Shown in pieces: positions 2,490 to 35,437 of a stretch of DNA of 35,437 nt; within the stretch, counting starts at the first letter, position 1; every line of letters begins with the position of its first letter. The stretch lies in the IMG/VR virus record IMGVR_UViG_3300020047_008974; one strand, given 5' to 3'. This DNA is from a virus. The notes beneath the pieces are model-generated. The model saw only the letters and a program-made list of their open reading frames with translations. It ran no database searches and was not told where the DNA came from. The translations under genes were made by a program, and so were the position numbers.

Positions 2490-3107
2490 TTAGAATGGTA
2501 CAGTATCTAAATCCTCAGCAGTAATAACAGGTACTCCTCCGTTTTTCATTGTTTGATATTCACTAGAACTAGTGATTTTATCTTTAATGAAATCTGGTTG
2601 TTTTTCAAATAATGCCTCGTTCCAATTATCATAACTTAATACCTGAGGTTCATTGATAGCTGGTGGACAAGTCATACCTTTAGGTAAAGGTGTGTAGTTT
2701 TCTAAACAAGCGAATACTCCTGAGTTATCTTTTTTAGGTTTATGAACTACTGTAACAAGTAGATCCTTACCAATTAAGCTTTCGATATCAAATACGTCCA
2801 TCATACCATCATTATCCAATTCGAGAGCTTTTGGATCACAAGCGGTAATAACTCTACGTAATGTTGATTTTTCATTAAATGATAATGTAAAGTCCTGACT
2901 GATAACTCGTGGCTGTTCTCCTTTCTCTTTATCAAACACGTGAAGTTCAGTAGGTAATTCAAATCCAATACGTACTTTGTTTTGGAGTGCTCCTTGGTAA
3001 CCAACAATGGTACCAATATGAATCATTTGATAAATACGTGCTGCATAACTTCCCGCTTCAATTGGCTCGACTGATTCACCTTTCTTATTTGTTGCTATAA
3101 TAGCCAT
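2490..3107 (-). CDS. Hypothetical early protein, possibly ssDNA-binding (DUF669-like guess)
   Basis: 205-aa ORF preceded by a long structured leader. The family guess rests only on a loose N-terminal resemblance. Confidence 0.6.
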   Translation of the reverse strand: MAIIATNKKGESVEPIEAGSYAARIYQMIHIGTIVGYQGALQNKVRIGFELPTELHVFDKEKGEQPRVISQDFTLSFNEKSTLRRVITACDPKALELDNDGMMDVFDIESLIGKDLLVTVVHKPKKDNSGVFACLENYTPLPKGMTCPPAINEPQVLSYDNWNEALFEKQPDFIKDKITSSSEYQTMKNGGVPVITAEDLDTVPF

Positions 3108-3293
3108 ATAATTTATGTGTTTTTAGTCTTTATAATAAACCAGGCCGACTAAGCGCTGGGGACTAGCAACGGGGCAACCGATCTCCTCGAGTACCCCAGT
3201 ACAGCCACCTTGTGTGCAACCAGAGAGTCGTCTTAATCCATCACCTAATTACTAGTCCTCAATGCTCCTACTCATAGGGTACCATACCCGGAT

Positions 3294-3309
3294 AATATAG
3301 CAAGGGGGT
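3294..3309 (-). promoter_or_regulatory. Candidate extended -10 promoter (TGCTATATT on minus strand) inside a conserved 14-mer
   Basis: The minus strand reads ACCCCCTTGCTATATT. The 14-mer TATAGCAAGGGGGT (3296-3309) recurs at 6734-6747, where it forms TGCTATAAT with a -35 box. Confidence 0.4.
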
Positions 3310-3552
3310 TATCAATTAAACTGTGCATATCTTTTATACCCGATTAGTGAGGTTGGTTAAGGAATAGAATACCTCACCAAAGCCCCAAAATTGACCTGTA
3401 CGGGGTTTTACATAAGAGGTCAGTAGTTTGTACCATAGCGACCTAAACCCTTGCTATTTTTTGGCAAATATGCAAGACTATTAATACATCTTTGATAGAT
3501 GTCAAGCGTTTAGTAAAGTATCGTTAAAAACTTAACCTTAATATTGCAATTT

Positions 3553-3650
3553 AGAAAAGAGAATCCTACAGCGGGGGTTCTTTTTTATTGGCTGGATCCT
3601 ACAGGTGATAGAAACACCTATCGTGGGGTATAGCCCTACCTGCAGGAGCC
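3553..3650 (-). terminator. Tandem hairpins terminating the upstream minus-strand operon; the inner one could act in both directions
   Basis: Hairpin 3590-3650 (GGCT..CCTACAGG / CCTGCAGGAGCC). Hairpin GAATCC 3561-3566 / GGGTTC 3575-3580 has T6 on the + side and TCTTTTCT on the - side. They lie just downstream of the stop at 3664. Confidence 0.55.
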
Positions 3651-3663
3651 AACCAACCACACG

Positions 3664-3993
3664 TTACCGTGTGCTAGCTAGCATATCTTGTTTCCAAACT
3701 TGCTCTTTCTTTTGTCTTTTCTTAGCAATATCAGGAGAAGCTGAGTACATACCTAAGTCATTTTGGAAATGAGCCCGGTGACGTTTTACATTATCCTCAC
3801 GAGGTAGATCCATAATATCGTCCAAATAAACATACTTTCTACTTTGGGTAGATCCGTCAGATAGTGTCATTGTTTCAACACGTATACTTTTAGGATAAAA
3901 TACCGCCCATATTTTTAATGTTAACCATTGATCAGAATCCCGGCTTTTTGGGAATTCTTTCAAGATACATTCGACCTGGTCTTTTAGAGTCAT
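3664..3993 (-). CDS. Hypothetical early protein
   Basis: 109-aa ORF, tightly packed with its neighbours. Confidence 0.65.
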   Translation of the reverse strand: MTLKDQVECILKEFPKSRDSDQWLTLKIWAVFYPKSIRVETMTLSDGSTQSRKYVYLDDIMDLPREDNVKRHRAHFQNDLGMYSASPDIAKKRQKKEQVWKQDMLASTR

Positions 3994-3997
3994 AGAT

Positions 3998-4321
3998 TTA
4001 TTGTAGTTTATTAGCGCACGCAGTCATAGCTGGTAATACTTCATCAGGCAATACTCCTGTTTCATCATACTTAACTGACATTTTGATTAACCCAGTGATA
4101 CCTAATTGTTGTTCGAGTTTATCATAGGCACAGCTACAGTATCCGTAGAACCCCGGACCAGCCTCAGTACATCCATTCATAAAATCATCTTTAAATGTAC
4201 TATTCTCTGCGACAATAGGTGTGTTTTTAGTTTCCTGTTCGGTAAAGTAAACTGCTAACCCGATAATTACAATAACCGCTACCACTGCTCCAATTATAGC
4301 GTTTTGTTGTGTGTTTTTCAT
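3998..4321 (-). CDS. Membrane-anchored Cys-containing protein
   Basis: 107 aa. N-terminal hydrophobic helix (AIIGAVVAVIVIIGLAVYF) followed by a domain with several Cys. Confidence 0.65.
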   Translation of the reverse strand: MKNTQQNAIIGAVVAVIVIIGLAVYFTEQETKNTPIVAENSTFKDDFMNGCTEAGPGFYGYCSCAYDKLEQQLGITGLIKMSVKYDETGVLPDEVLPAMTACANKLQ

Positions 4322-6474: not shown

Positions 6475-6660
6475 TTATTTGGTGAAAAAATGGATAATAT
6501 AATCCTGTCCGATAAACAAGAATAATGTTGTAATTATTAATAAAAATAATAAAATACATTTTAATATTCCAGTATCAAATGGTTTACTTTCCCAACTCAT
6601 AATTTCCTCTGGCCATTTAGCTTTACGATCCTTAATTCCGTCAAAGTTAGTTTTTTTCAT
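6475..6660 (-). CDS. Small membrane protein, first gene of the leftward operon
   Basis: 61 aa with one hydrophobic helix (ILKCILLFLLIITTLFLFIG). Confidence 0.55.
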   Translation of the reverse strand: MKKTNFDGIKDRKAKWPEEIMSWESKPFDTGILKCILLFLLIITTLFLFIGQDYIIHFFTK

Positions 6661-6731
6661 AAATAAATTAATCTATACATTAATCGATACTATGATAAGG
6701 GGAAGTGACTAGCCAACCCATATCTACTACA

Positions 6732-6760
6732 ATTATAGCAAGGGGGTAGTTATTATGCAA
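6732..6760 (-). promoter_or_regulatory. Candidate sigma70-type promoter for the leftward operon
   Basis: The minus strand reads TTGCAT (6760-6755), a 17-nt spacer, then TGC-TATAAT (6740-6732), about 70 nt upstream of ATG 6660. Confidence 0.5.
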
Positions 6761-6948
6761 CTAGACTATAACAAAGATTCGTGCTATTTCGATGTCCAGG
6801 ATTTGCACAAAAAAAGAGAGAATAGTATTATCACAAGTATACCCAATAGGGTACTTGCTGGGGCGAATTAAGATTAGCAAGTAAAGCATAAATCTTATAG
6901 GGCAGTTAGGTTGAAACGTAAATCAACCGGGGCGATGGTAAATCGATA

Positions 6949-7038
6949 ACTGCTCTCCCACTCTCAAGTAACGAACTTAATAAGTTTTTATAAATTTGCT
7001 TATTAAGCTCAACAGTTACTGGGGGGTGGGGGGGCTGT
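6949..7038 (+). ncRNA. Candidate structured RNA element: long imperfect hairpin closed by pyrimidine tract / G-tract pairing
   Basis: Pairings are 6953-6965 with 7022-7034 (13 pairs, 4 of them G.U), 6967-6972 with 7015-7020, and 6976-6984 with 6999-7007. The G.U pairs work only on the + strand. Confidence 0.3.
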
Positions 7039-7090
7039 CAAAAAGGGGCTCAAGTAAATAAATAACTTATAGAACTGCATTATTGAATTT

Positions 7091-7131
7091 GTATTACTGT
7101 ATTAGGATTGTATTAGGTATTAAATGTATAA
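7091..7131. repeat. Iteron-like array of GTATTA(GG) direct repeats
   Basis: Copies begin at 7091, 7099, 7110, 7117 and 7126 (the last is the degenerate GTATAA). TGTATTAGG occurs twice. The array is followed by TTATCCGCA (7132-7140) and the + promoter. Confidence 0.5.
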
Positions 7132-7149
7132 TTATCCGCAGGAAAATAT

Positions 7150-7178
7150 TTGACAAATAAAATTAATGGGAATATTAT
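7150..7178 (+). promoter_or_regulatory. Candidate sigma70-type promoter
   Basis: TTGACA 7150-7155, exactly 17-nt spacer, TATTAT 7173-7178. Confidence 0.5.
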
Positions 7179-7184
7179 TGAAAC

Positions 7185-7272
7185 AGGTAGATTTCGATTC
7201 CCCGTCGACCTACCCGCTCCAAAAGAGCTCATAAACCCTATTGCATTAAAGACACCACTGTGTGTCTTTTTT
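7185..7272 (+). ncRNA. Candidate ~85-90-nt small RNA, or a terminated leader
   Basis: Bounded by the promoter above and the terminator at 7250-7272. Predicted hairpins are 7186-7214 (GGTAG/CTACC plus TCGA/TCGA) and 7216-7228. No ORF. Confidence 0.35.
7250..7272 (+). terminator. Intrinsic terminator
   Basis: AGACAC 7250-7255 / GTGTCT 7262-7267, 6-nt loop, T-run to 7272. Confidence 0.6.
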
Positions 7273-7296
7273 GTTTGTTGTATCTTTTTTGTTATG

Positions 7297-7305
7297 TGCT
7301 ACTAT
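7297..7305 (+). promoter_or_regulatory. Candidate extended -10 box (TGCTACTAT) placing the start site on the ATG of the next gene
   Basis: The hexamer ends at 7305 and ATG 7312 is 7 nt downstream, implying a leaderless mRNA. Confidence 0.3.
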
Positions 7306-7311
7306 TAAATT

Positions 7312-8610
7312 ATGAGTAAACTTAAACTAAAATGGCATACAGAGCAGAGAATTATCAATGACCTTATCCCTTTTGATCAGAACCCTCGTAAAATGACTGA
7401 GGATCAGGCCAAACAATTAACAAAATCAATAGAGGAATTCGATATTGTAGAAATTCCCGCAATTGATTTAGATAATATTTTAGTAGCAGGTCACCAACGA
7501 ATGCGAGTAATGCAATTACTAGGACGTGGAGGTGAAACAACAGACGTACGTGTACCAAATAGAAAATTAACACCTAAAGAATTCAAGGATTACAACGTAC
7601 GATCCAATAAGAATGTAGGTATGTGGGATGATGAATTACTAGCAGGATTATTTGATGAGCAGGAACTCCGTGATTTAGGCTTCAGTGACCTAGAATTGGG
7701 CCTATTAGACTTCAATAACCCTAAAGAGGAGGATGACGACGTAGTACCAGATTTACCTGAAAATGAACCAATTTCAAAGCTTGGTGACTTGTATGAATTA
7801 CCAGGAGGTCACCGGATACTATGTGGTGACTCAACCAGTAAAGAGGATGTGGAGAAATTAATGGATGGAGAAAAAGCCGACCTAGTATTTACGGATCCGC
7901 CTTACAACGTAGATTACTCAGGAACAGGGAAAAATACTAAAGAGGGTATATTAAACGACAATATGAGCCGAGAAGAATTTAATACATTCTTAGGTGAAGT
8001 ATTCAAAAGATACTCAGAAGTAACAAAAGAAACAGCAGCCTGGTATGTATTCCACTCTCCAAAGACTCAAGACCAATTCAAGAACGAAATAAACAAAACC
8101 GACTGGAAAGTAAAAAACCAGATAATATGGAACAAACCAAACGCAGGTATGGGAATGAATGAATACCGACAAAAACACGAACCAATGTTCTATTGTGGTA
8201 CTGATAGTGTAAAATTCTATGGTGATCGTACAGGAACTACTGTGTTGGACTTCCACAAAGAAATAGATGACTTAGTTAAATGGGCAAAAACAGTACAAAA
8301 TGCCGATAGAAATGGAAAAACGACTATATGGACTATGAAACGAGAGCCAGTAGGAGATTACGTACACCCAACACAGAAGCCTGTTGAACTTATAGAATAT
8401 GTAATACGCAATTCAAGTAAACCCGGAGATTTAGTATTGGACTTATTTATGGGATCAGGCGCAACTTTGATTGCTGCAGGTAAAAAAGGACGTGTAGCCT
8501 ACGGTATGGAGCTCGATCCAAAGTACGTGGATGTTGTTATAGGACGTTACTGCAACTACACTTGCAACGATAAGATCATAAAGAATGGCGAGGAAATAAC
8601 CTGGCAATAG
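7312..8610 (+). CDS. ParB-like nuclease domain fused to an N6-adenine/N4-cytosine DNA methyltransferase
   Basis: The N-terminus has a ParB-type DLIPFDQNPR...VAGHQR pattern. The C-terminal half has TDPPYN (motif IV) followed later by DLFMGSGAT (FxGxG, motif I), which is the beta-class order. Confidence 0.8.
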   Translation: MSKLKLKWHTEQRIINDLIPFDQNPRKMTEDQAKQLTKSIEEFDIVEIPAIDLDNILVAGHQRMRVMQLLGRGGETTDVRVPNRKLTPKEFKDYNVRSNKNVGMWDDELLAGLFDEQELRDLGFSDLELGLLDFNNPKEEDDDVVPDLPENEPISKLGDLYELPGGHRILCGDSTSKEDVEKLMDGEKADLVFTDPPYNVDYSGTGKNTKEGILNDNMSREEFNTFLGEVFKRYSEVTKETAAWYVFHSPKTQDQFKNEINKTDWKVKNQIIWNKPNAGMGMNEYRQKHEPMFYCGTDSVKFYGDRTGTTVLDFHKEIDDLVKWAKTVQNADRNGKTTIWTMKREPVGDYVHPTQKPVELIEYVIRNSSKPGDLVLDLFMGSGATLIAAGKKGRVAYGMELDPKYVDVVIGRYCNYTCNDKIIKNGEEITWQ

Positions 8611-8611
8611 T

Positions 8612-8956
8612 ATGAGAAAAATACCAGATGATCTGAGAACAGAGATGGCAAACGATCCGTACTATAAAAAATGCGCCTTAACTGGTATTACTGATGGAAA
8701 GATAGACTGGCATCACAACTTGACCTATGCCGGCCGTCAGGTTAATGAAAAATGGTGTATAATACCCTTATCAAAACCAATCCACGATAGAATAGACTAC
8801 TACAAAGATAAAGTGGACTGGATTATGCTCAATAGGGCAACAGATGATGAACTAGTAGCCTACAGCAAGGCAATAGACTTAATAGCTAAAAGAAACCGAC
8901 TTAATAAACTATATGGCGAAACATTTAGAGAAAGAGATACAACTAGCTATTTGTAA
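8612..8956 (+). CDS. Hypothetical protein, possibly HNH/His-Me-finger-like
   Basis: C..TG....IDWHHN...IPLSKPIHDRI is loosely HNH-like, but the Cys ligand set is incomplete. Confidence 0.55.
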   Translation: MRKIPDDLRTEMANDPYYKKCALTGITDGKIDWHHNLTYAGRQVNEKWCIIPLSKPIHDRIDYYKDKVDWIMLNRATDDELVAYSKAIDLIAKRNRLNKLYGETFRERDTTSYL

Positions 8957-9231: not shown

Positions 9232-9253
9232 AGGCAAGGTACTTGCTTTTTTT
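9232..9253 (+). terminator. Intrinsic terminator
   Basis: GCAAG 9234-9238 / CTTGC 9242-9246, followed by T7 at 9247-9253. Confidence 0.55.
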
Positions 9254-9305: not shown

Positions 9306-9503
9306 ATGAAAAAAGTAGAATTGACACCGGAACAAGAGGAATTGGCCAAAAAAGTATCAGATCAGATAACTGGAATATTAAACGATAATGGACTCGCTAT
9401 TAGTATAGAAATGATCTATGGACCTGATGCTATTACAGCAAAACCAATTATGGTGTTTACAAACATAAAAGCTGATGAGGTAGCTGAGGAAAAAAATGAC
9501 TAG
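9306..9503 (+). CDS. Hypothetical small acidic protein
   Basis: 65-aa ORF, overlapping the next gene by 8 nt. Confidence 0.55.
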   Translation: MKKVELTPEQEELAKKVSDQITGILNDNGLAISIEMIYGPDAITAKPIMVFTNIKADEVAEEKND

Positions 9504-9740: not shown

Positions 9741-11252
9741 ATGGCAAAACAAGTATTATTCGGACGTGATGCAAAAGATAAGATCAAGGTAGGTATTGAT
9801 ACTGTTTGTAAAGCAATCCGTACCACGATCGGTCCAAAAGGACGTAATGCATTTATAGATGACCAGATGCAACCAAAACTAACCAATGATGGTAAAACAA
9901 TAGCAATGTCTATTGAATTATCTGACAAGTTAGAAAATATGGGTGCTTGGTTAGTTAAAAACTCGTCCAGTCAAACAGATGACGATGCAGGAGATGGAAC
10001 ATCAACCACATCAGTACTACTGAAAGCAATTATTGATGAAGCTCAGAAACGACCAGAGAGTCCAATGGATATTAAACGCTCATTGATTAAAACAGGTGAA
10101 CAGGTAAAAAAGTACATTAAGGAAGCATCACAACCAATTAAAGACAACCAGATAGCAGATATTGCTACCATTTCTGCTGAATCAAGAGAATTAGGTGACT
10201 TGATAGCTAAGATTATAAAAGAATCAGGTAAAAACAAACCAATCAATATCGAGGATAACTCAGAGCCTGTTATTGATTATGAGATCAGTAAAGGATTAGA
10301 AACAAACGTAGGATTTGCACATCACGCATTTATTAACAACGCCCGGAACGGAACTTGTGAACTGGAAAACGTGGCAGTGTTTGCAACTGATAGACGTATC
10401 TCAAGCCTACCGGACTTAATGACATTACTTAGATTATTGGAGGTTAATAAAATAACCGACTTGATCCTATTGGTAAGTGACATTGAAAACTCAGTATTAG
10501 GAAGTCTAGTACAATCAAAGGCAGCTGGTATGTTTAACTCTTTAGTGATCCGAGCAAGAAACGCAGAACTGGAGGATATGGTAGCTATGACAGGTGCAAC
10601 TCTTGTATCAGAACTAACCGGCCTTAAGTTTAGTGACGTGAAACTGGAACATTTGGGTAGGGTTAAAAAAATTGTTGCTAGCGATAAGAAAACACTAATT
10701 ATCAATGAGTCACCGGCAGCAAAAGAAAAAGAGGATACACTTAGAGCATTAGCTGACAACACTAAAAACATTTATGAAAAGAAATTCCTAAATGATCGAG
10801 CTGATAAGTTATCAGGAGGTGTGGTAGTCATAAAAGTAGGTGCGCACGTTGATTCAGAACGAATTTACCAGAAGTATAAGATAGAGGATGCAGTGAACGC
10901 TACAAAATCCGCCCTGGAGGAGGGAATTGTAGAGGGAGGAGGTATGTGCTTCTATCGAATCTCTAATAAGTTCAAAGGTAATTCAATCGGTGAATCTATC
11001 CTACGCAACGCACTAAAGGAACCATTGAAAGCTATTATTGAAAATTGTGACGAGGATTACTCAGCTATTGTTAAACGATTACCAAATAAAAAAGGATATG
11101 ATGCCTCATCAGGTAAAGCAGTAGATATGATCAAGGCAGGTATTATTGATCCAGCCCGGGTAACCAGATCAGCATTTCAAAACGCATTAGAAACAGCTGC
11201 AACCTATATAACAATGGAGGTAGCTATTTCAGATATTAATGAAACCAAATAA
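9741..11252 (+). CDS. groEL: GroEL-like group I chaperonin (503 aa, shorter than cellular GroEL)
   Basis: AKQVLFGRDA..., TIGPKGRN, DDAGDGTSTTSVL (ATP-site GDGTTT-like), EEGIVEGGG and GIIDPARVTRSAFQNA align by eye with E. coli GroEL landmarks. No GGM tail. Confidence 0.9.
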   Translation: MAKQVLFGRDAKDKIKVGIDTVCKAIRTTIGPKGRNAFIDDQMQPKLTNDGKTIAMSIELSDKLENMGAWLVKNSSSQTDDDAGDGTSTTSVLLKAIIDEAQKRPESPMDIKRSLIKTGEQVKKYIKEASQPIKDNQIADIATISAESRELGDLIAKIIKESGKNKPINIEDNSEPVIDYEISKGLETNVGFAHHAFINNARNGTCELENVAVFATDRRISSLPDLMTLLRLLEVNKITDLILLVSDIENSVLGSLVQSKAAGMFNSLVIRARNAELEDMVAMTGATLVSELTGLKFSDVKLEHLGRVKKIVASDKKTLIINESPAAKEKEDTLRALADNTKNIYEKKFLNDRADKLSGGVVVIKVGAHVDSERIYQKYKIEDAVNATKSALEEGIVEGGGMCFYRISNKFKGNSIGESILRNALKEPLKAIIENCDEDYSAIVKRLPNKKGYDASSGKAVDMIKAGIIDPARVTRSAFQNALETAATYITMEVAISDINETK

Positions 11253-11862: not shown

Positions 11863-11888
11863 CCCCCTATTGCTAGGGGGTTTCCTTG
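11863..11888. terminator. Bidirectional intrinsic terminator
   Basis: CCCCCTA 11863-11869 / TAGGGGG 11874-11880 with loop TTGC. A7 lies upstream and TTTCCTTG downstream. Confidence 0.65.
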
Positions 11889-12077: not shown

Positions 12078-12113
12078 CTAATTAATTAAAATACTAGACA
12101 ATAACAACAGAGG

Positions 12114-12122
12114 TGTTATACT
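12114..12122 (+). promoter_or_regulatory. Candidate extended -10 box (TGTTATACT) for the morphogenesis operon
   Basis: The hexamer ends at 12122 and ATG 12129 is 7 nt downstream, a leaderless geometry. Confidence 0.3.
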
Positions 12123-12128
12123 TTTTGT

Positions 12129-12518
12129 ATGAACAATGATATTCCATTAAATAATAGTGAAAATATAGTAAAAAGAAATGAAAAAGGACAACTTGAAAAA
12201 GGTTCTGTTCTTAACCCTGCAGGTAAACCAAAAGGCGCTAAACATATTTCCACGCTTGTCTTTAATGCATTACAGAATATGTCACCCAAAGGCGATGGAA
12301 AGAAATGGGAGGACCTATTCGTTGAACGTATCTTACTAGAAGCAATCAACAAAGGTAATCCAAAAGTTATGTCATTACTGTGGGCTTATATGGATGGACA
12401 ACCTCAACAAGGAATAGACCTAACAACAGGAGGAGAATCATTAAACCAGGCAAGTGATGATGTTATGGAGATAGCTAAACAAGTGGCCGCTCAATTAAAA
12501 GCTAAAAAGACTAAATAA
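12129..12518 (+). CDS. Putative terminase small subunit
   Basis: 129 aa, immediately upstream of the large terminase. Basic N-terminal segment NPAGKPKGAK. Confidence 0.45.
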   Translation: MNNDIPLNNSENIVKRNEKGQLEKGSVLNPAGKPKGAKHISTLVFNALQNMSPKGDGKKWEDLFVERILLEAINKGNPKVMSLLWAYMDGQPQQGIDLTTGGESLNQASDDVMEIAKQVAAQLKAKKTK

Positions 12519-12522
12519 ACCT

Positions 12523-14118
12523 ATGGATGAAGTGACAAAAGAAAAACTGGCTAACTTAGACATCCATATCTTTAATGAAGTATACGAAATAAAGAATGAA
12601 CAAGGTAATAAGCTAGACTTCACACAGCACTCATTCCTATGGGACATCTATTCAGACTTGTCTCCTTTTCAGGCTATTATGAAAGCAGCGCAGGTAGGAT
12701 TTACCACCACTGCAATCATTAAAAGCTTATGGGTAGCTCATACCAAGAAAATGGATATGATCTATACAATGCCAACTTACTCAGACGTTAATACATTGGT
12801 GACTTCAAAGGTAAACCGTATCATTGAACAGAACCCGGTACTACAGGAATGGGTATCCAAGAAAGATACTATTGAACAAAAGCGTGTAGGTGATTCAGTT
12901 ATCTATTACCGAGGAACCTGGAGCGAACGAGAAGCACTCTCAACATCCTCAGACTTAAACATTCACGATGAGGTAGACCGCAGTAACTTAAAAGTGGTTG
13001 ATCAATACTATTCACGTTTACAACACTCCAAGTATCACTGGCAGTGGCTTTTTAGTAACCCAAGTGTACCAGAGATAGGAGTGCATAAACTATGGAGTAG
13101 ATCAGATCAAAAGCATTACTTCTATACCTGTAAAGAATGCGGGAAAAAGCAATTCCTAGTAATGGATAACATTATGAAAAAGGAAGAGGATAAGGATGAG
13201 TGGTACTTCGGCTGTACCACCTGTAAGGCTGAAATTGCCCGCTATGGGGGCGAATGGATAGCTAGGTGGAGAGATAGGACCTATGACCCAATAAAGAACC
13301 CACACGGGGTAAATGGCTATTGGATTAGCTTGTTAATGTGTCCGTGGGTATCGGCCAACACTATCAAGGATTTGGAAAAGAATAAACCCGCTGATTTCTT
13401 TGCTAACTTCGTATTAGGAATACCATACACAGGAAGTGGTAACGTAGTAAACAAAGGAACCATTATGCGTAACCTAACTGATGCAGTGAACACCCAGGAG
13501 GGGCGCATTGTTATTGGAGTGGATCCCGGGATTGATATTAGATACGTTATTGGTAATGCGCAGGGGATATTCTATTACGGATCCTGTAAAGACTATTCAG
13601 AACTGGAAGCATTAATGAAACGATGGCCTAAAGCTATTATGGTTATAGACTCCGGGGGGGATATCATAGCCAGTCGTGAATTAAGAGCCAGATTTAAAAA
13701 CCGTATATTCTTAGCGTATTACCGACTGGACCGTAAGAGTGAAAATATATTTGATTGGAATGATGATGAGGGCTCAGTAACTATTGATCGAAACAAAACC
13801 ATCCAATTAGTTATTGATGAGTTTACTGATAGACGAATACCAATTTATGGGAACGAAACAGAATGGTACGATTACTGGCTTCACTGGTCACACATCTACC
13901 GAGTATCAGAGGAAACAAACCTAGGACAAATACGACACAAATGGATGCGTAGTGATCGAGATGACTGGGTACACGCAACCGTATACTGGAGAACCGGGAT
14001 GGATAGATTTATGGAGGGTGAGGGGGCAATTATTAACATTCAAGAGTCAATCGGAGAGGTTGGATACACAACTGATCCTACTGGAAAACATTTATTCCAG
14101 CCTCAAAGAAAATATTAA
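12523..14118 (+). CDS. terL: Terminase large subunit (GpA-like)
   Basis: KAAQVGFTTTA resembles the lambda GpA-type K-S-A-R-V-G-Y-S ATPase segment. Also an internal CKECGKK...CTTCKAEI zinc-ribbon-like pair and acidic nuclease-like motifs (VIGVDPG, VIDSGGD). Followed by the portal. Confidence 0.8.
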   Translation: MDEVTKEKLANLDIHIFNEVYEIKNEQGNKLDFTQHSFLWDIYSDLSPFQAIMKAAQVGFTTTAIIKSLWVAHTKKMDMIYTMPTYSDVNTLVTSKVNRIIEQNPVLQEWVSKKDTIEQKRVGDSVIYYRGTWSEREALSTSSDLNIHDEVDRSNLKVVDQYYSRLQHSKYHWQWLFSNPSVPEIGVHKLWSRSDQKHYFYTCKECGKKQFLVMDNIMKKEEDKDEWYFGCTTCKAEIARYGGEWIARWRDRTYDPIKNPHGVNGYWISLLMCPWVSANTIKDLEKNKPADFFANFVLGIPYTGSGNVVNKGTIMRNLTDAVNTQEGRIVIGVDPGIDIRYVIGNAQGIFYYGSCKDYSELEALMKRWPKAIMVIDSGGDIIASRELRARFKNRIFLAYYRLDRKSENIFDWNDDEGSVTIDRNKTIQLVIDEFTDRRIPIYGNETEWYDYWLHWSHIYRVSEETNLGQIRHKWMRSDRDDWVHATVYWRTGMDRFMEGEGAIINIQESIGEVGYTTDPTGKHLFQPQRKY

Positions 14119-29812: not shown

Positions 29813-31678
29813 ATGGCCTCTAGATATTGGGTCGGTGGTACTGCTAACTGGGATGCAACAATTGGTACAAAATGGGCAACAACCTCAGGTGGAGCAGGAG
29901 GTGCTGCTGTGCCAACAACATCAGATAACGTATTTTTTGATGCAAATAGTGGATCGGGTACAGTAACTATTGCAATCGTAGATGTAACTTGTTTAAATAT
30001 AGATTTTACTGGATTCACAGGAACATTAGCAGGTTCAACAACACAACTACAACCTTTAGGTAATATTACATTGGGATCAGGTATGACTTGGAGTCATTCA
30101 GCTGTACTTAACTGGTTTGGAACAGGAAGTTCAACATTTACAAGTAATGGAAAAACTACCACATCAACATTACAATTTACAGGGACTGGTACAATGACAT
30201 TACAAGATGATTTCACTAATACTGGAGCAGGTGGATTGTCACATACATCAGGAACTATTGATGCAAATAATAAAAATGTAAATATAATTAATTATAATGG
30301 TTCACCAGCAGGTACTAAAACACTTACAATGGGTTCAGGTACGTGGACCTTATCAGGAACAGGTACTGTGTGGACTGCATCAAATGTATCGACACTTAAT
30401 GCAAACACATCAGTTATTAAAGTAATTGATACAAGTGCATCAACGTGTATATTTGCAGGTTCAGGTAAAACATACAGTACGGTTTGGTTAGCACGTGGAA
30501 CAAGTTCAGGTATTAACACTATTTCAGGTTCTAACACCTTTGCAATATTAAAAGATAACGGAACAGTAGCCCATACTACACGATTCACAGCAGGAACCAC
30601 ACAAATCATTTCAACAGCCTCAGGATGGCAAATATCGGGCAATTCGGGGCAATTAATCACCATTAACTCCACAACAACAGGTACTCATACTTTATCCTGT
30701 GCAAGTGGTAACATTTCAGCAGATTACTTGGATATTCAACACTCAGTGGCTCAAGGAGGTGCAAAATGGTTTGCAGGTGCCAACAGTACCAATAACCAGG
30801 CAACAGCAACAGCAGGTAGTGGTTGGATATTCCAACAAGTGAAATCCCTTATTATTGCAGGAGGTGGTGGAGGAGGTATTGGAGCAACCGTTGGAGCTCG
30901 TTGGGGAGGAGGTGGAGGAGCGGGGGGTTACCAAGAAAATGCTGCGGTATCTGTCACGGCTCAGGCTTATACTATTACTGTGGGAACAGGTGGAAGTGGT
31001 GGTGCAGGAGCTGGAGATAACGGAACAGATAGTTCTGCTTTTGGTATTACTTCTACTGGTGGAGGAGGAGGAGCTGCTGCAACATCAGGAACGGGTCTTA
31101 CTGGAGGTTCAGGTGGAGGAGGAGCAGGAGCCGCTGGAGGTACTGGGGTTCTTGCAAACGGAGGGGCAGGTACGGGTGGACAAGGAAATAATGGAGGTGC
31201 AGGATTTAGTGGTAACAGTTCTACTGGAGCTGGAGGTTCAGGAGGAGGTTCTGGCGGTGCTGGAGGTAATGCTTCTGCGTCAACAGGAGGAAATGGAGGG
31301 GCAGGTACAGCATCAAGTATCAATGGCTCATCAGTTACACGAGCTGGTGGAGGAGGAGGTGGAGGTGTTACTACAGGTGGTACTGGGGGTTCAGGTGGAG
31401 GAGGAGCTGGAGGAACAGATGGAGCAGGAGCAAACGCTACAGCAAATACTGGTTCAGGTGGAGGAGGAGCTAAGAACGGATTTACAGGAGGAAATGGTGC
31501 AGATGGGGTTGTAATTATCTCATTTATAACTACAGATTTTGCAGACTTAGGTTGGACTTGCACTGGTGGAACAATTACCACTTCTGGTTCAAATACAATT
31601 CATACATTCAATAGTAGTGGAACATTTACTATTACTGCTTCTGCTACAAATAACGCACAATTTCTAGCATTTATGTAA
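29813..31678 (+). CDS. Glycine-rich tail fibre or spike-like protein
   Basis: 621 aa. The N-terminal half is Thr/Ser/Gly beta-rich. Residues ~345-570 are GGxGG-type runs ending in GGNGADGVVIISF, like the phage glycine-rich domain family. Confidence 0.65.
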   Translation: MASRYWVGGTANWDATIGTKWATTSGGAGGAAVPTTSDNVFFDANSGSGTVTIAIVDVTCLNIDFTGFTGTLAGSTTQLQPLGNITLGSGMTWSHSAVLNWFGTGSSTFTSNGKTTTSTLQFTGTGTMTLQDDFTNTGAGGLSHTSGTIDANNKNVNIINYNGSPAGTKTLTMGSGTWTLSGTGTVWTASNVSTLNANTSVIKVIDTSASTCIFAGSGKTYSTVWLARGTSSGINTISGSNTFAILKDNGTVAHTTRFTAGTTQIISTASGWQISGNSGQLITINSTTTGTHTLSCASGNISADYLDIQHSVAQGGAKWFAGANSTNNQATATAGSGWIFQQVKSLIIAGGGGGGIGATVGARWGGGGGAGGYQENAAVSVTAQAYTITVGTGGSGGAGAGDNGTDSSAFGITSTGGGGGAAATSGTGLTGGSGGGGAGAAGGTGVLANGGAGTGGQGNNGGAGFSGNSSTGAGGSGGGSGGAGGNASASTGGNGGAGTASSINGSSVTRAGGGGGGGVTTGGTGGSGGGGAGGTDGAGANATANTGSGGGGAKNGFTGGNGADGVVIISFITTDFADLGWTCTGGTITTSGSNTIHTFNSSGTFTITASATNNAQFLAFM

Positions 31679-34921: not shown

Positions 34922-35437
34922 ATGGCAATTACAACCCCACTAGCCTCAAACGCTAATAAAACAACTTCATATATAAATAATGCCTTTGCTAAGAATTCAG
35001 GTAATACTTTAAGTAATCAATTAGGTGTTAATGCTAAAGCTCCGGCTCCAGCAACATCAGGAAACACTACCATCAAACCTAATATGTCAGTGGCTCCTAA
35101 TATGTCACCGAAATTCATAGGACCAATGGATACTAATTCAGATGCAACAAAGGTAAAGAATATGCAAACTCAGCTCAATGCTAAGAATGCTGGTCAACCA
35201 GGATGGACTCCACTACAAGTGGACGGTATCCTTGGACCTAAAACAAAAGCTGCTCAATCATTCAAACCTACATCTACTAATTCAGGAACAACAGGAGGTT
35301 CAAGCTATTCGTCAGGTAGTACAACAGGAGGTTCATATCAATCACAACCACTACAATACCAACCATCTCAATATCAAGCTCCTACACAGCAACAGCCAGC
35401 TCAATCAAATGAGATGAGTCAAAACCAGGCATTGTTA
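34922..35437 (+). CDS. 5' part of the wrap-around gene: N-terminal peptidoglycan-binding-like segment
   Basis: ATG 34922 after TAAtactat. Hand translation MAITTPLASNANK... contains NAGQPGWTPLQVDGILGPKTKAAQ (PG_binding_1-like DGxxGxxT). Open to the window end and continues in 1..1330. Confidence 0.8.
   Translation, partial: MAITTPLASNANKTTSYINNAFAKNSGNTLSNQLGVNAKAPAPATSGNTTIKPNMSVAPNMSPKFIGPMDTNSDATKVKNMQTQLNAKNAGQPGWTPLQVDGILGPKTKAAQSFKPTSTNSGTTGGSSYSSGSTTGGSYQSQPLQYQPSQYQAPTQQQPAQSNEMSQNQALL
35317..35437. repeat. Terminal direct repeat, copy 2
   Basis: Identical to 1-121. Confidence 0.95.

Follow-up and report, generated by a model that had tools for sequence, protein, structure and literature searches.

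The 35,437-nucleotide (nt) stretch of viral DNA considered here, IMG/VR record IMGVR_UViG_3300020047_008974 (hereafter the window, meaning the whole of that stretch), is the genome of an uncultured lake phage and carries, at 7150-7275 on the plus strand, a compact promoter-to-terminator unit. In our view, this unit is a separate gene for a non-coding small RNA (sRNA) of about 86-91 nt, which would act by pairing through its linker with a neighbouring structured RNA, and we give this reading a probability of about one half. To our knowledge, phage sRNAs with a known partner are very few, and examples from uncultured environmental phages are almost non-existent. In the present case, a hypothesis that can be tested by mutation follows from sequence comparison alone, namely that a 9-nt linker pairs with the 5′ hairpin of the neighbouring RNA. 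If the pair controls replication, packaging or the timing of early genes, it would constitute a new RNA-based control circuit of phages.

The sRNA unit and its relatives

The predicted promoter of the sRNA (7150-7178, plus strand) consists of a -35 box TTGACA (7150-7155), a 17-nt spacer and a -10 box TATTAT (7173-7178), and places the predicted start near 7185. It is the sole 11/12 match to the sigma70 consensus on either strand of the 35.4-kb genome; simulated genomes of equal composition contain about 1.6 such matches by chance, and the promoter is not significant from its score alone. What makes it credible is its location and its conservation. Leftward genes run from 6660 to 2084 and rightward genes from 7312 around the circle to 1935, and, because gene directions split at 6660/7312, the unit falls within the sole divergent control region of the genome, a 650-nt intergenic region.

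Beyond the promoter, the RNA is predicted to form a first hairpin at 7186-7214 (outer stem GGUAG/CUACC, inner stem UCGA(U)/(G)UCGA, an apical loop with CCCC), a second of 4 base pairs (bp) at 7216-7228 (GCUC-CAAAA-GAGC), a single-stranded linker ACCCUAUUG at 7235-7243, which is the proposed pairing site for 6844-6852, and an intrinsic terminator at 7248-7275. The terminator is made up of an A tract, an 8-bp stem AAAGACAC/GUGUCUUU (7248-7269) with a 6-nt loop, and a U tract; the stem is followed by Ts to 7272 and then by GTTTGTT. The CCCC of the first loop (7200-7203) is among only 18 C runs of four or more in the genome. Folded as a 91-nt RNA (7185-7275), the unit reaches -26.5 kcal/mol (z = -5.6), which none of 200 shuffles equals, and the minimum free energy structure both accounts for 66% of the ensemble and coincides with the centroid. 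The minus strand of the same region is less exceptional in its fold (z = -3.3).

This anatomy is that described in an earlier note on the window, which had placed a TTGACA/17-nt/TATTAT promoter, two hairpins and a downstream terminator where we find them, the computed hairpins agreeing exactly. The note's further claim of an RNA of about 85-90 nt without an open reading frame (ORF) is likewise borne out: the RNA has no AUG, and two mechanical ORFs that cross the unit (7150-7308 on the plus strand and 7113-7232 on the minus strand) are not conserved in L081, one of the relatives introduced below. ARAGORN detected no transfer RNA (tRNA) or transfer-messenger RNA in the window, and Rfam 15 gave no gathering-level match there; at E <= 10 between 6600 and 7400, Rfam returned only weak microRNA-like matches on a long hairpin of the upstream RNA and a 17-bit terminator-like match. 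A tRNA-like or attP reading of TTCGATTCCCCGTCGACCTACC was rejected, ARAGORN being empty and the T-loop-like bases missing in L081. A type III toxin-antitoxin (ToxI-like) locus was also considered, and there is no tandem array in 7150-7275, the next gene encoding a DNA methyltransferase.

Relatives of the window were compared at loci that carry L-numbers as labels. Their homologues of this methyltransferase form a graded series of identity (L092, 99%; L081, 84%; L087, 74%; L090, 72%; L091, 67%), more than 20 further homologues falling between 59% and 99%, and their contigs are syntenic, with small leftward genes, the intergenic region, the methyltransferase, an HNH-like protein, a VRR-NUC nuclease and GroEL. 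A homologous sRNA unit is present in the window, L092, L081 and L087. Its promoter reads TTGACA/TATTCT in L081 and TTGACT/TATTCT in L087, with the 17-nt spacing kept while the spacer and flanks diverge, and the first hairpin begins 1-2 nt past the predicted start in every homologous unit. Both hairpins change in a compensatory manner. In the first, L081 has U:A in place of a C:G pair, C:G in place of a U.G and UUGAC/GUCAA in place of the inner stem UCGA/UCGA; L087 has A:U at two outer positions that are G:C in the window; and an A to G change yields a U.G pair in L092. The CCCC of its loop is invariant across the homologous units. The stem of the second is GCUC/GAGC in the window, GCCU/AGGC in L081 and GAUC/GAUC in L087. 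A terminator stands at the equivalent position in L081, L087, L090 and L091, with a conserved 3′ arm UGUGUCUUUU, and the same architecture emerges when each relative's sequence is folded individually. The plus strand is the more structured in four of five lineages (z for plus/minus: -5.6/-3.3, -5.6/-3.6, -4.5/-0.8 and -5.6/-2.4). Because G.U pairs, and in L087 a one-sided bulge, are tolerated in the hairpins, they suit RNA rather than duplex DNA. Judged by these comparisons, the unit is a real, conserved feature at the level of RNA, and the discrete RNA gene that had been claimed gains in conservation, in compensatory change and in strand asymmetry.

When three sequences (the window, L092 and L081) were used to build a covariance model, it ranked the syntenic L087 site as its third-best match, at 10.5 bits. 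Run over 100 loci, a model of the two hairpins returned its training sequences only, L087 surfacing solely with the filters off, and patterns for the first hairpin in IMG/VR gave no exact match and, in degenerate form, 17 chance matches in coding DNA. These searches also bear on the idea of an RNA anti-CRISPR, a solitary repeat unit whose hairpin would resemble the CRISPR repeat of the host.

The distribution of the unit is patchy. L090 and L091 have non-homologous promoter-hairpin-terminator units of the same design at the same place. Upstream of the methyltransferase in L084, L089/L193 and L195, where that protein is 72-80% identical, and also in L082, a co-oriented unit is absent; in L084, L089/L193 and L195 there is only a leaderless promoter together with a divergent leftward one. 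With its own promoter and terminator, a position between conserved genes and patchy occurrence among relatives, the unit has the attributes by which morons are recognized, and by this distribution it appears as accessory and dispensable in the relatives.

That distribution bears directly on an alternative that the earlier note had set beside the independent sRNA, that of a terminated leader. As a leader or antitermination checkpoint, the strong promoter would serve the rightward genes, with transcripts ending at 7248-7275 until RNA polymerase became terminator-resistant, through either a Q- or N-like phage factor or the hairpins themselves acting in the manner of put, and the RNA of about 90 nt would be a by-product, as is 6S RNA of lambda. 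The strongest sigma70 match of the genome does point into about 30 kb of co-oriented genes, further intrinsic terminators lie among the rightward genes at 9232, 11864 and 31713, and two promoter-proximal hairpins with a terminator recall putL of HK022 (PMC9378689), the A-rich pentaloop of the second hairpin also loosely recalling, on our own reading, boxB. Moreover, the large structured element described below and the genes beyond it are preceded, in L084, L193, L175 and L184, by a short RNA with its promoter and terminator; no second promoter is obvious at these loci, and read-through must occur there. However, L084, L089/L193 and L195 run the operon without a co-oriented unit, so the rightward genes do not need this strong promoter, and both the methyltransferase gene and a gene at 12129 have predicted leaderless promoters of their own. 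The further terminators divide the rightward arm into modules, and no antiterminator protein was recognized among the 24 ORFs scanned. The two hairpins span 43 nt, against about 70 nt for the long bulged stems of put, and a -10-like pause element, TAGATT at +5 to +10, is confined to the window and L092 (TAGAAC in L081, none in L087). Nor does any pairing compete with the terminator in the dominant fold: an examination for a riboswitch or attenuator gave no alternative antiterminator pairing and nothing upstream complementary to the 5′ arm of the terminator. Of the two possibilities in the note, the independent RNA gene has therefore held, whereas the leader, attenuator or antitermination target, weakened by relatives that lack the unit, by the single fold and by the modular promoters, has been lowered to one that we consider rather doubtful.

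Complementarity to a structured RNA upstream

The candidate partner of the sRNA is a large structured RNA (about 6838-7062) that is likewise encoded on the plus strand. Cofolding the sRNA with 6838-7062 gains 10.6 kcal/mol, and the best perfect helix joins the linker ACCCUAUUG (7235-7243) to CAAUAGGGU (6844-6852) in 9 bp at -13.4 kcal/mol, the two sites lying 390 nt apart. The target comprises the loop and 3′ arm of the 5′-terminal hairpin of the structured RNA. At the homologous positions, L081 has a different helix of 7 bp (AUUCCAU/AUGGAAU), and L087 a different one of 8 bp (UCUAAUAU/AUGUUAGA) that includes a G.U pair. When shuffling was confined to the pairing regions, the observed helix was reached in 7, 65 and 113 of 5000 trials (0.14%, 1.3% and 2.3%) for the window, L081 and L087. 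Duplex energies of -13.4, -11.6 and -9.4 kcal/mol for the window, L081 and L087 exceed those of the respective target hairpins (-6.1, -3.7 and -0.6 kcal/mol). We read this complementarity as a covarying RNA-RNA contact in three lineages.

A sequence of events can be proposed on this basis. The sigma70-type promoter would fire at about 7185, giving an sRNA made early and abundantly, and this RNA would fold at once into a 5′ hairpin with its CCCC loop, a small second hairpin, a free linker and a terminator end. In the cell, the linker at 7235-7243 would then pair with the 5′ hairpin of the structured RNA, engaging its loop and 3′ arm, either in trans from the short RNA or in cis when a long transcript runs on to the shared terminator. 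Pairing would open or mask that 5′ hairpin and so alter the folding or stability of the long RNA, in the manner of a countertranscript. In essence, we infer that both promoters fire, that the two RNAs meet in vivo and that a regulated output results.

Several points weigh against an sRNA acting through its linker. The homologous sRNA is carried by only three independent sequences, and the helices are short (7-9 bp). The pairing regions used for the shuffles were set after the helix had been seen. The site in the L087 sRNA overlaps the end of the second hairpin, linker pairing does not account for the invariant CCCC loop, and the short terminated RNAs of L084, L193, L175, L184 and L189 have no consistent complementarity to the large element. 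Lastly, should the long transcript never end before the shared terminator, the helix may just close a single RNA of about 440 nt.

This last point can be developed into a reading of its own, in which one RNA spans 6838-7275, the helix closes it, no separate sRNA exists, and TTGACA-17-TATTAT is fortuitous or a minor internal promoter. The full-length fold does close 6844-6852 onto 7235-7243, there is no terminator between 7062 and 7248, and an 11/12 promoter is expected by chance at the frequency given above. Yet three lineages retain both hexamers at a spacing of exactly 17 nt, and in each the first hairpin begins just past the predicted start. Elsewhere in 7063-7184, conservation is the lowest of the whole region and indels occur, unlike in a structured linker, and the equivalent units of L090 and L091 occur without the G-run element that ends the structured RNA. 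We regard a single long RNA as improbable.

A reading at the level of DNA would instead make the first hairpin a palindromic operator (+2 to +30), for the ParB-domain methyltransferase or a repressor, or would make the 7-9-bp repeats the borders of an invertible promoter. The site of a dimeric DNA-binding protein is likewise an inverted repeat that evolves "compensatorily", the palindrome and the start of transcription overlap, and the large element of L084 is oppositely oriented relative to the methyltransferase. L084, however, is not a simple inversion of the window segment. G.U-type pairs (the U.G of the window, the A to G change of L092, the L087 helix) and the one-sided bulge of L087 tell against duplex DNA, as do the covariation of two adjacent, unrelated hairpins and the difference between strands in the significance of the fold. 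A recombinase site is unlikely because the flanking repeats, 7-9 bp long, are wholly different in every lineage and include a G.U pair; no recombinase was recognized among the ORFs scanned. Taken as a whole, a DNA-level explanation seems to us very unlikely.

Other partners for the sRNA were sought. A genome-wide search by duplex energy gave strong matches only to GGNGGN glycine-codon repeats at 30855-31514, which are non-specific. The methyltransferase mRNA was rejected as a target at its 5′ end, there being only 5-nt matches that are inconsistent between lineages. Pairing of the CCCC loop with G runs is plausible, G runs being about 14 times as dense in 6699-7048 as in the genome on average, but is not claimed: the register differs between the window and L081. 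As to the glycine-codon repeats themselves, 30855-31514 (plus strand) lies within the ORF 29813-31678, has a G+C content of 46% and a GC skew of 0.28, and probably belongs to a tail-fibre-like protein; this region dominates naive complementarity searches with C-rich RNAs.

The structured RNA has its own putative promoter at 6802-6831 on the plus strand (TTGCAC-17-TATTAT, or TTTGCA with a spacing of 18), with a predicted start near 6838. The promoter is kept in L081 (TAAAAT), and analogous promoters are found in L087, L090 and L091. It stands back to back with a leftward early promoter at 6760-6732 on the minus strand (TTGCAT-17-TGcTATAAT), which is conserved in L081 and L087 and was not listed by the consensus scan; we also observed that GTTATCCAC boxes adjoin the leftward promoter in L087, L090 and L091. 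The RNA is predicted to contain the 5′-terminal hairpin (6840-6853), a pseudoknot, a two-hairpin junction at about 6901-6957 and a long hairpin of about 100 nt at 6943-7044, whose 3′ arm GGGGGGTGGGGGGGCTGT (7021-7038) is G.U-paired to a pyrimidine arm. The pseudoknot is formed by CUUGCU (6854-6859) with AGCAAG (6876-6881) and by AAGAU (6870-6874) with AUCUU (6892-6896), and its second stem covaries, being AAGAU/AUCUU in the window, AGAGU/ACUCU in L081 and GGGAGU/ACUCCC in L189. The window and L081 share about 100% identity over 6856-7062, the flanking coding DNA being clearly more diverged. The fold reaches -74 kcal/mol on the plus strand against -57 on the minus strand, and Rfam has no match for 6838-7062. 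A search for further large elements of the window type with the patterns GGGGCGAATT...ATAGGGC and GGTTGAAACGTAAATCAACC gave one real match (L189), the rest being coincidences in coding DNA. A second sequence type of the element, with a shared 3′ motif and 10 covarying pairs, occurs in L087, L084, L175, L184 and L193. At these five loci, and at L189 as well, a short hairpin RNA with its promoter and terminator lies immediately 5′ of the element.

The G6-T-G7 motif in which this large pseudoknotted RNA ends is also found in phages unrelated to the window. The motif GGGGGGTNGGGGGGCTGT is found in about 10 non-coding places in unrelated IMG/VR phages with G+C contents of 35-68%; this count is near chance for a 17-base pattern, and it is the context that stands out. 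Of nine terminase candidates that were scanned with PHROGs, six have a large-terminase gene within 0.2-1.8 kb of the motif. At L173-L192 the motif takes the form GGGGGGT(N)GGGGGGCTGT, and it is often G.U-paired to an upstream pyrimidine arm; L193 carries the variant GGGGGAGGGGGG. Phage-specific direct repeats usually follow within 20-60 nt, as with TTGCCACCCTTT in L178. In the window, five TGTATTA-like direct repeats (7090, 7098, 7109, 7117 and 7125, the last ending at 7131) and a DnaA-box-like TTATCCGCA (7132-7140) lie just 5′ of the sRNA promoter; the repeats are present in L081 with other spacing and absent in L087. A match in L182 (IMG/VR 3300005689_000480) was discarded as an artefact, namely a contig-end poly-G run followed by the Nextera adapter CTGTCTCTTATACACATCT, and a literature search on GGGGGGTAGGGGGG found nothing relevant.

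From these features, the structured RNA with its G-run motif could be an origin, a packaging site (cos/pac) or a regulatory RNA at the start of an operon. A more ambitious proposal joins it to the sRNA as an RNA-only module for the control of replication or packaging, in which the G6-T-G7 tract would serve as an R-loop or G-quadruplex primer and the sRNA as the countertranscript conferring specificity. It leans by analogy on the likeness of the G tract to mitochondrial conserved sequence block II (CSBII) and the G-rich element of ColE1, on the repeats and on the DnaA-like box, and we think it a long shot. Were it true, the G-run motif would be a widespread, undescribed cis element across unrelated phages.

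Predicted leaderless promoters and the genomic setting

The terminator of the sRNA is fused to the promoter of the gene that follows, the ParB-domain DNA methyltransferase (7312-8610, plus strand). An extended -10 element TGcTACTAT (TGCTACTAT, 7297-7305) is separated by 6 nt from the ATG at 7312 (element and start together occupying 7297-7314). A repeat search revealed that the terminator tail, 7261-7278, has been duplicated in tandem as an 18-nt copy (TGTATCTTTTTTGTTATG, 7279-7296), from which come the -35 box TTGTAT (7278-7283) and the spacer. L081, L087 and L090 arrive at the same layout by another route, the 3′ arm of the terminator (TTGTGT or TTGTCT) doubling as the -35 box 16-17 nt before the -10 box. 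The terminator would thus both insulate the methyltransferase promoter and supply its -35 box and spacer.

A TAnnnT box stands 6 nt before the methyltransferase ATG in all lineages examined but one: TACTAT in L081, TATTAT in L084, L090 and L091, TATAAT in L087 (before the true start MKKTNNGLVWHTE), TAAAAT in L089/L193 and TATACT in L082, the exception being L195, with TATACT at 9 nt. Because the distance of 6 nt recurs in nine lineages, the methyltransferase mRNA is predicted to be leaderless. The earlier note had remarked that this gene has its own box after the terminator, and the geometry across lineages makes the case stronger than was then claimed. It had also called the sRNA unit self-contained, and here the result is divided: the unit does have its own promoter and terminator, but its linker is predicted to pair with the RNA upstream and its terminator is merged with the next promoter.

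A like design is found at 12095-12122 (TAGACA, 16 nt, TGtTATACT), 6 nt before the ATG at 12129 and after a terminator at 11864-11880; the gene concerned precedes the terminase and is likewise predicted to be leaderless. This recurrence suggests that the phage habitually begins transcripts at an ATG just behind a terminator. The gene at 9306 may be similar, with TAATAT 9 nt before its ATG. Shine-Dalgarno sequences were found at none of the 46 gene starts in the window; the DNA upstream of the starts is A/T-rich, typically reads ...A-T-ATG and often overlaps the preceding stop codon. The predicted promoters of the window are of the canonical sigma70 type, not the Bacteroidota -33/-7 type. An unusual layout is therefore exposed, in which terminators are fused to ATG-starting promoters in a genome without Shine-Dalgarno sequences.

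The contig is complete and circular, since its first and last 121 bases are identical (1-121 = 35317-35437), and corresponds to a genome of about 35.3 kb. Besides the methyltransferase, it encodes a GroEL-type chaperonin (9741-11252), the large terminase (12523-14118), a portal and a major head protein; replication, integrase and repressor proteins were not recognized among the 24 ORFs scanned. No DNA match to the window was found among 50,697 GenBank phages, and all matches of the methyltransferase, terminase and GroEL to proteins of cultured phages were below 40% identity. Scanning 185,579 species genomes (GTDB) with the methyltransferase yielded no close relative (best 38% identity), and neither cluster names nor the genome scan gave a host. 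The best methyltransferases in IMG/VR and in JGI metagenomes, the latter scanned with over-general peptide patterns, were 58% and 57% identical, and none was accompanied by the sRNA.

Some further observations concern the surroundings of these elements. After the methyltransferase comes a 114-amino-acid ORF (8612-8956, plus strand) with an HNH-like motif, DWHHN...H, and in L184 an HNH endonuclease gene (3964-4266) begins 47 nt past the G-run motif; HNH proteins beside packaging sites are a known theme. A second stretch of the window without an ORF of at least 90 amino acids, 3107-3664, has six runs of at least four Gs on the plus strand, appearing as C runs when transcribed leftward. At L231-L253, perfect DnaA boxes (GTTATCCACAGAAGTTATCCACA) stand in tandem after the C terminus of a conserved phage protein (...GIDWMIWGELVESIPPAYTHYIGQQ), an array that is probably the replication origin of an unrelated phage group.

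Comparison with known systems

Beyond the covarying complementarity, the sRNA of the window has none of the defining features of c4 (P1/P7), CI (P4) or RNA I (ColE1), the regulators whose logic it recalls. A different comparison is that with the put sites: HK022 putL is described just downstream of PL, put being an RNA of about 70 nt with two long bulged stem-loops (PMC9378689). The position at +2 and the two-hairpin layout are alike, whereas the hairpins of the window total 43 nt and the second has only 4 bp. A put RNA lets RNA polymerase pass later terminators by contacting the beta′ zinc-binding domain; for the unit of the window, relatives that keep the operon but lack the unit speak indirectly against such an action. 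The PR′-tR′ 6S unit of lambda shares a strong promoter, a terminator within about 90 nt and a place at the head of a long co-oriented gene array. Unlike either, the unit of the window is dispensable in close relatives, and the next gene has a leaderless promoter; of a lambdoid Q module, the pause element is not conserved and neither a Q- nor an N-like family was found among the 24 ORFs scanned.

With morons and stand-alone phage sRNAs (oop of lambda, sar of P22, and LPR1/PreS of lambda, bioRxiv 10.1101/2024.10.31.621285), the unit has in common an autonomous non-coding cassette of about 70-100 nt that is patchy in relatives. Such sRNAs act on phage or host mRNAs, often with Hfq. The only supported partner of the sRNA of the window, by contrast, is a neighbouring non-coding RNA, and its terminator is fused to the next promoter.

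The ColE1 system offers a likeness in overall design, a terminated multi-hairpin RNA of about 100 nt set against the 5′ end of a longer, structured, G-rich RNA whose sigma70 promoter is close by. Beside these elements there are direct repeats and a DnaA-box-like site, and no replication gene is recognizable among the ORFs scanned. RNA I of ColE1, however, is encoded on the opposite strand to RNA II and is fully complementary to it over 108 nt, whereas both RNAs of the window lie on the plus strand and share 7-9 complementary bases; the proximity of the G-run motif to the terminase gene in unrelated phages points elsewhere.

The immunity RNAs c4 of P1/P7 and CI of P4 are small, stable, structured RNAs encoded on the same strand as their target and next to it, and they recognize it through short complementary blocks that covary between related phages and thereby determine specificity. 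They have no sequence or Rfam relation to the sRNA of the window, and they differ from it in being processed from the transcript that they control and in acting on downstream targets, by blocking translation or causing termination; the sRNA of the window has its own predicted promoter and terminator, and its candidate target, a 5′ hairpin, belongs to a non-coding RNA encoded upstream. What the two share is a same-strand, non-overlapping neighbour and short complementarity that covaries between phages, and it is this property of c4 and CI that the sRNA of the window reproduces.

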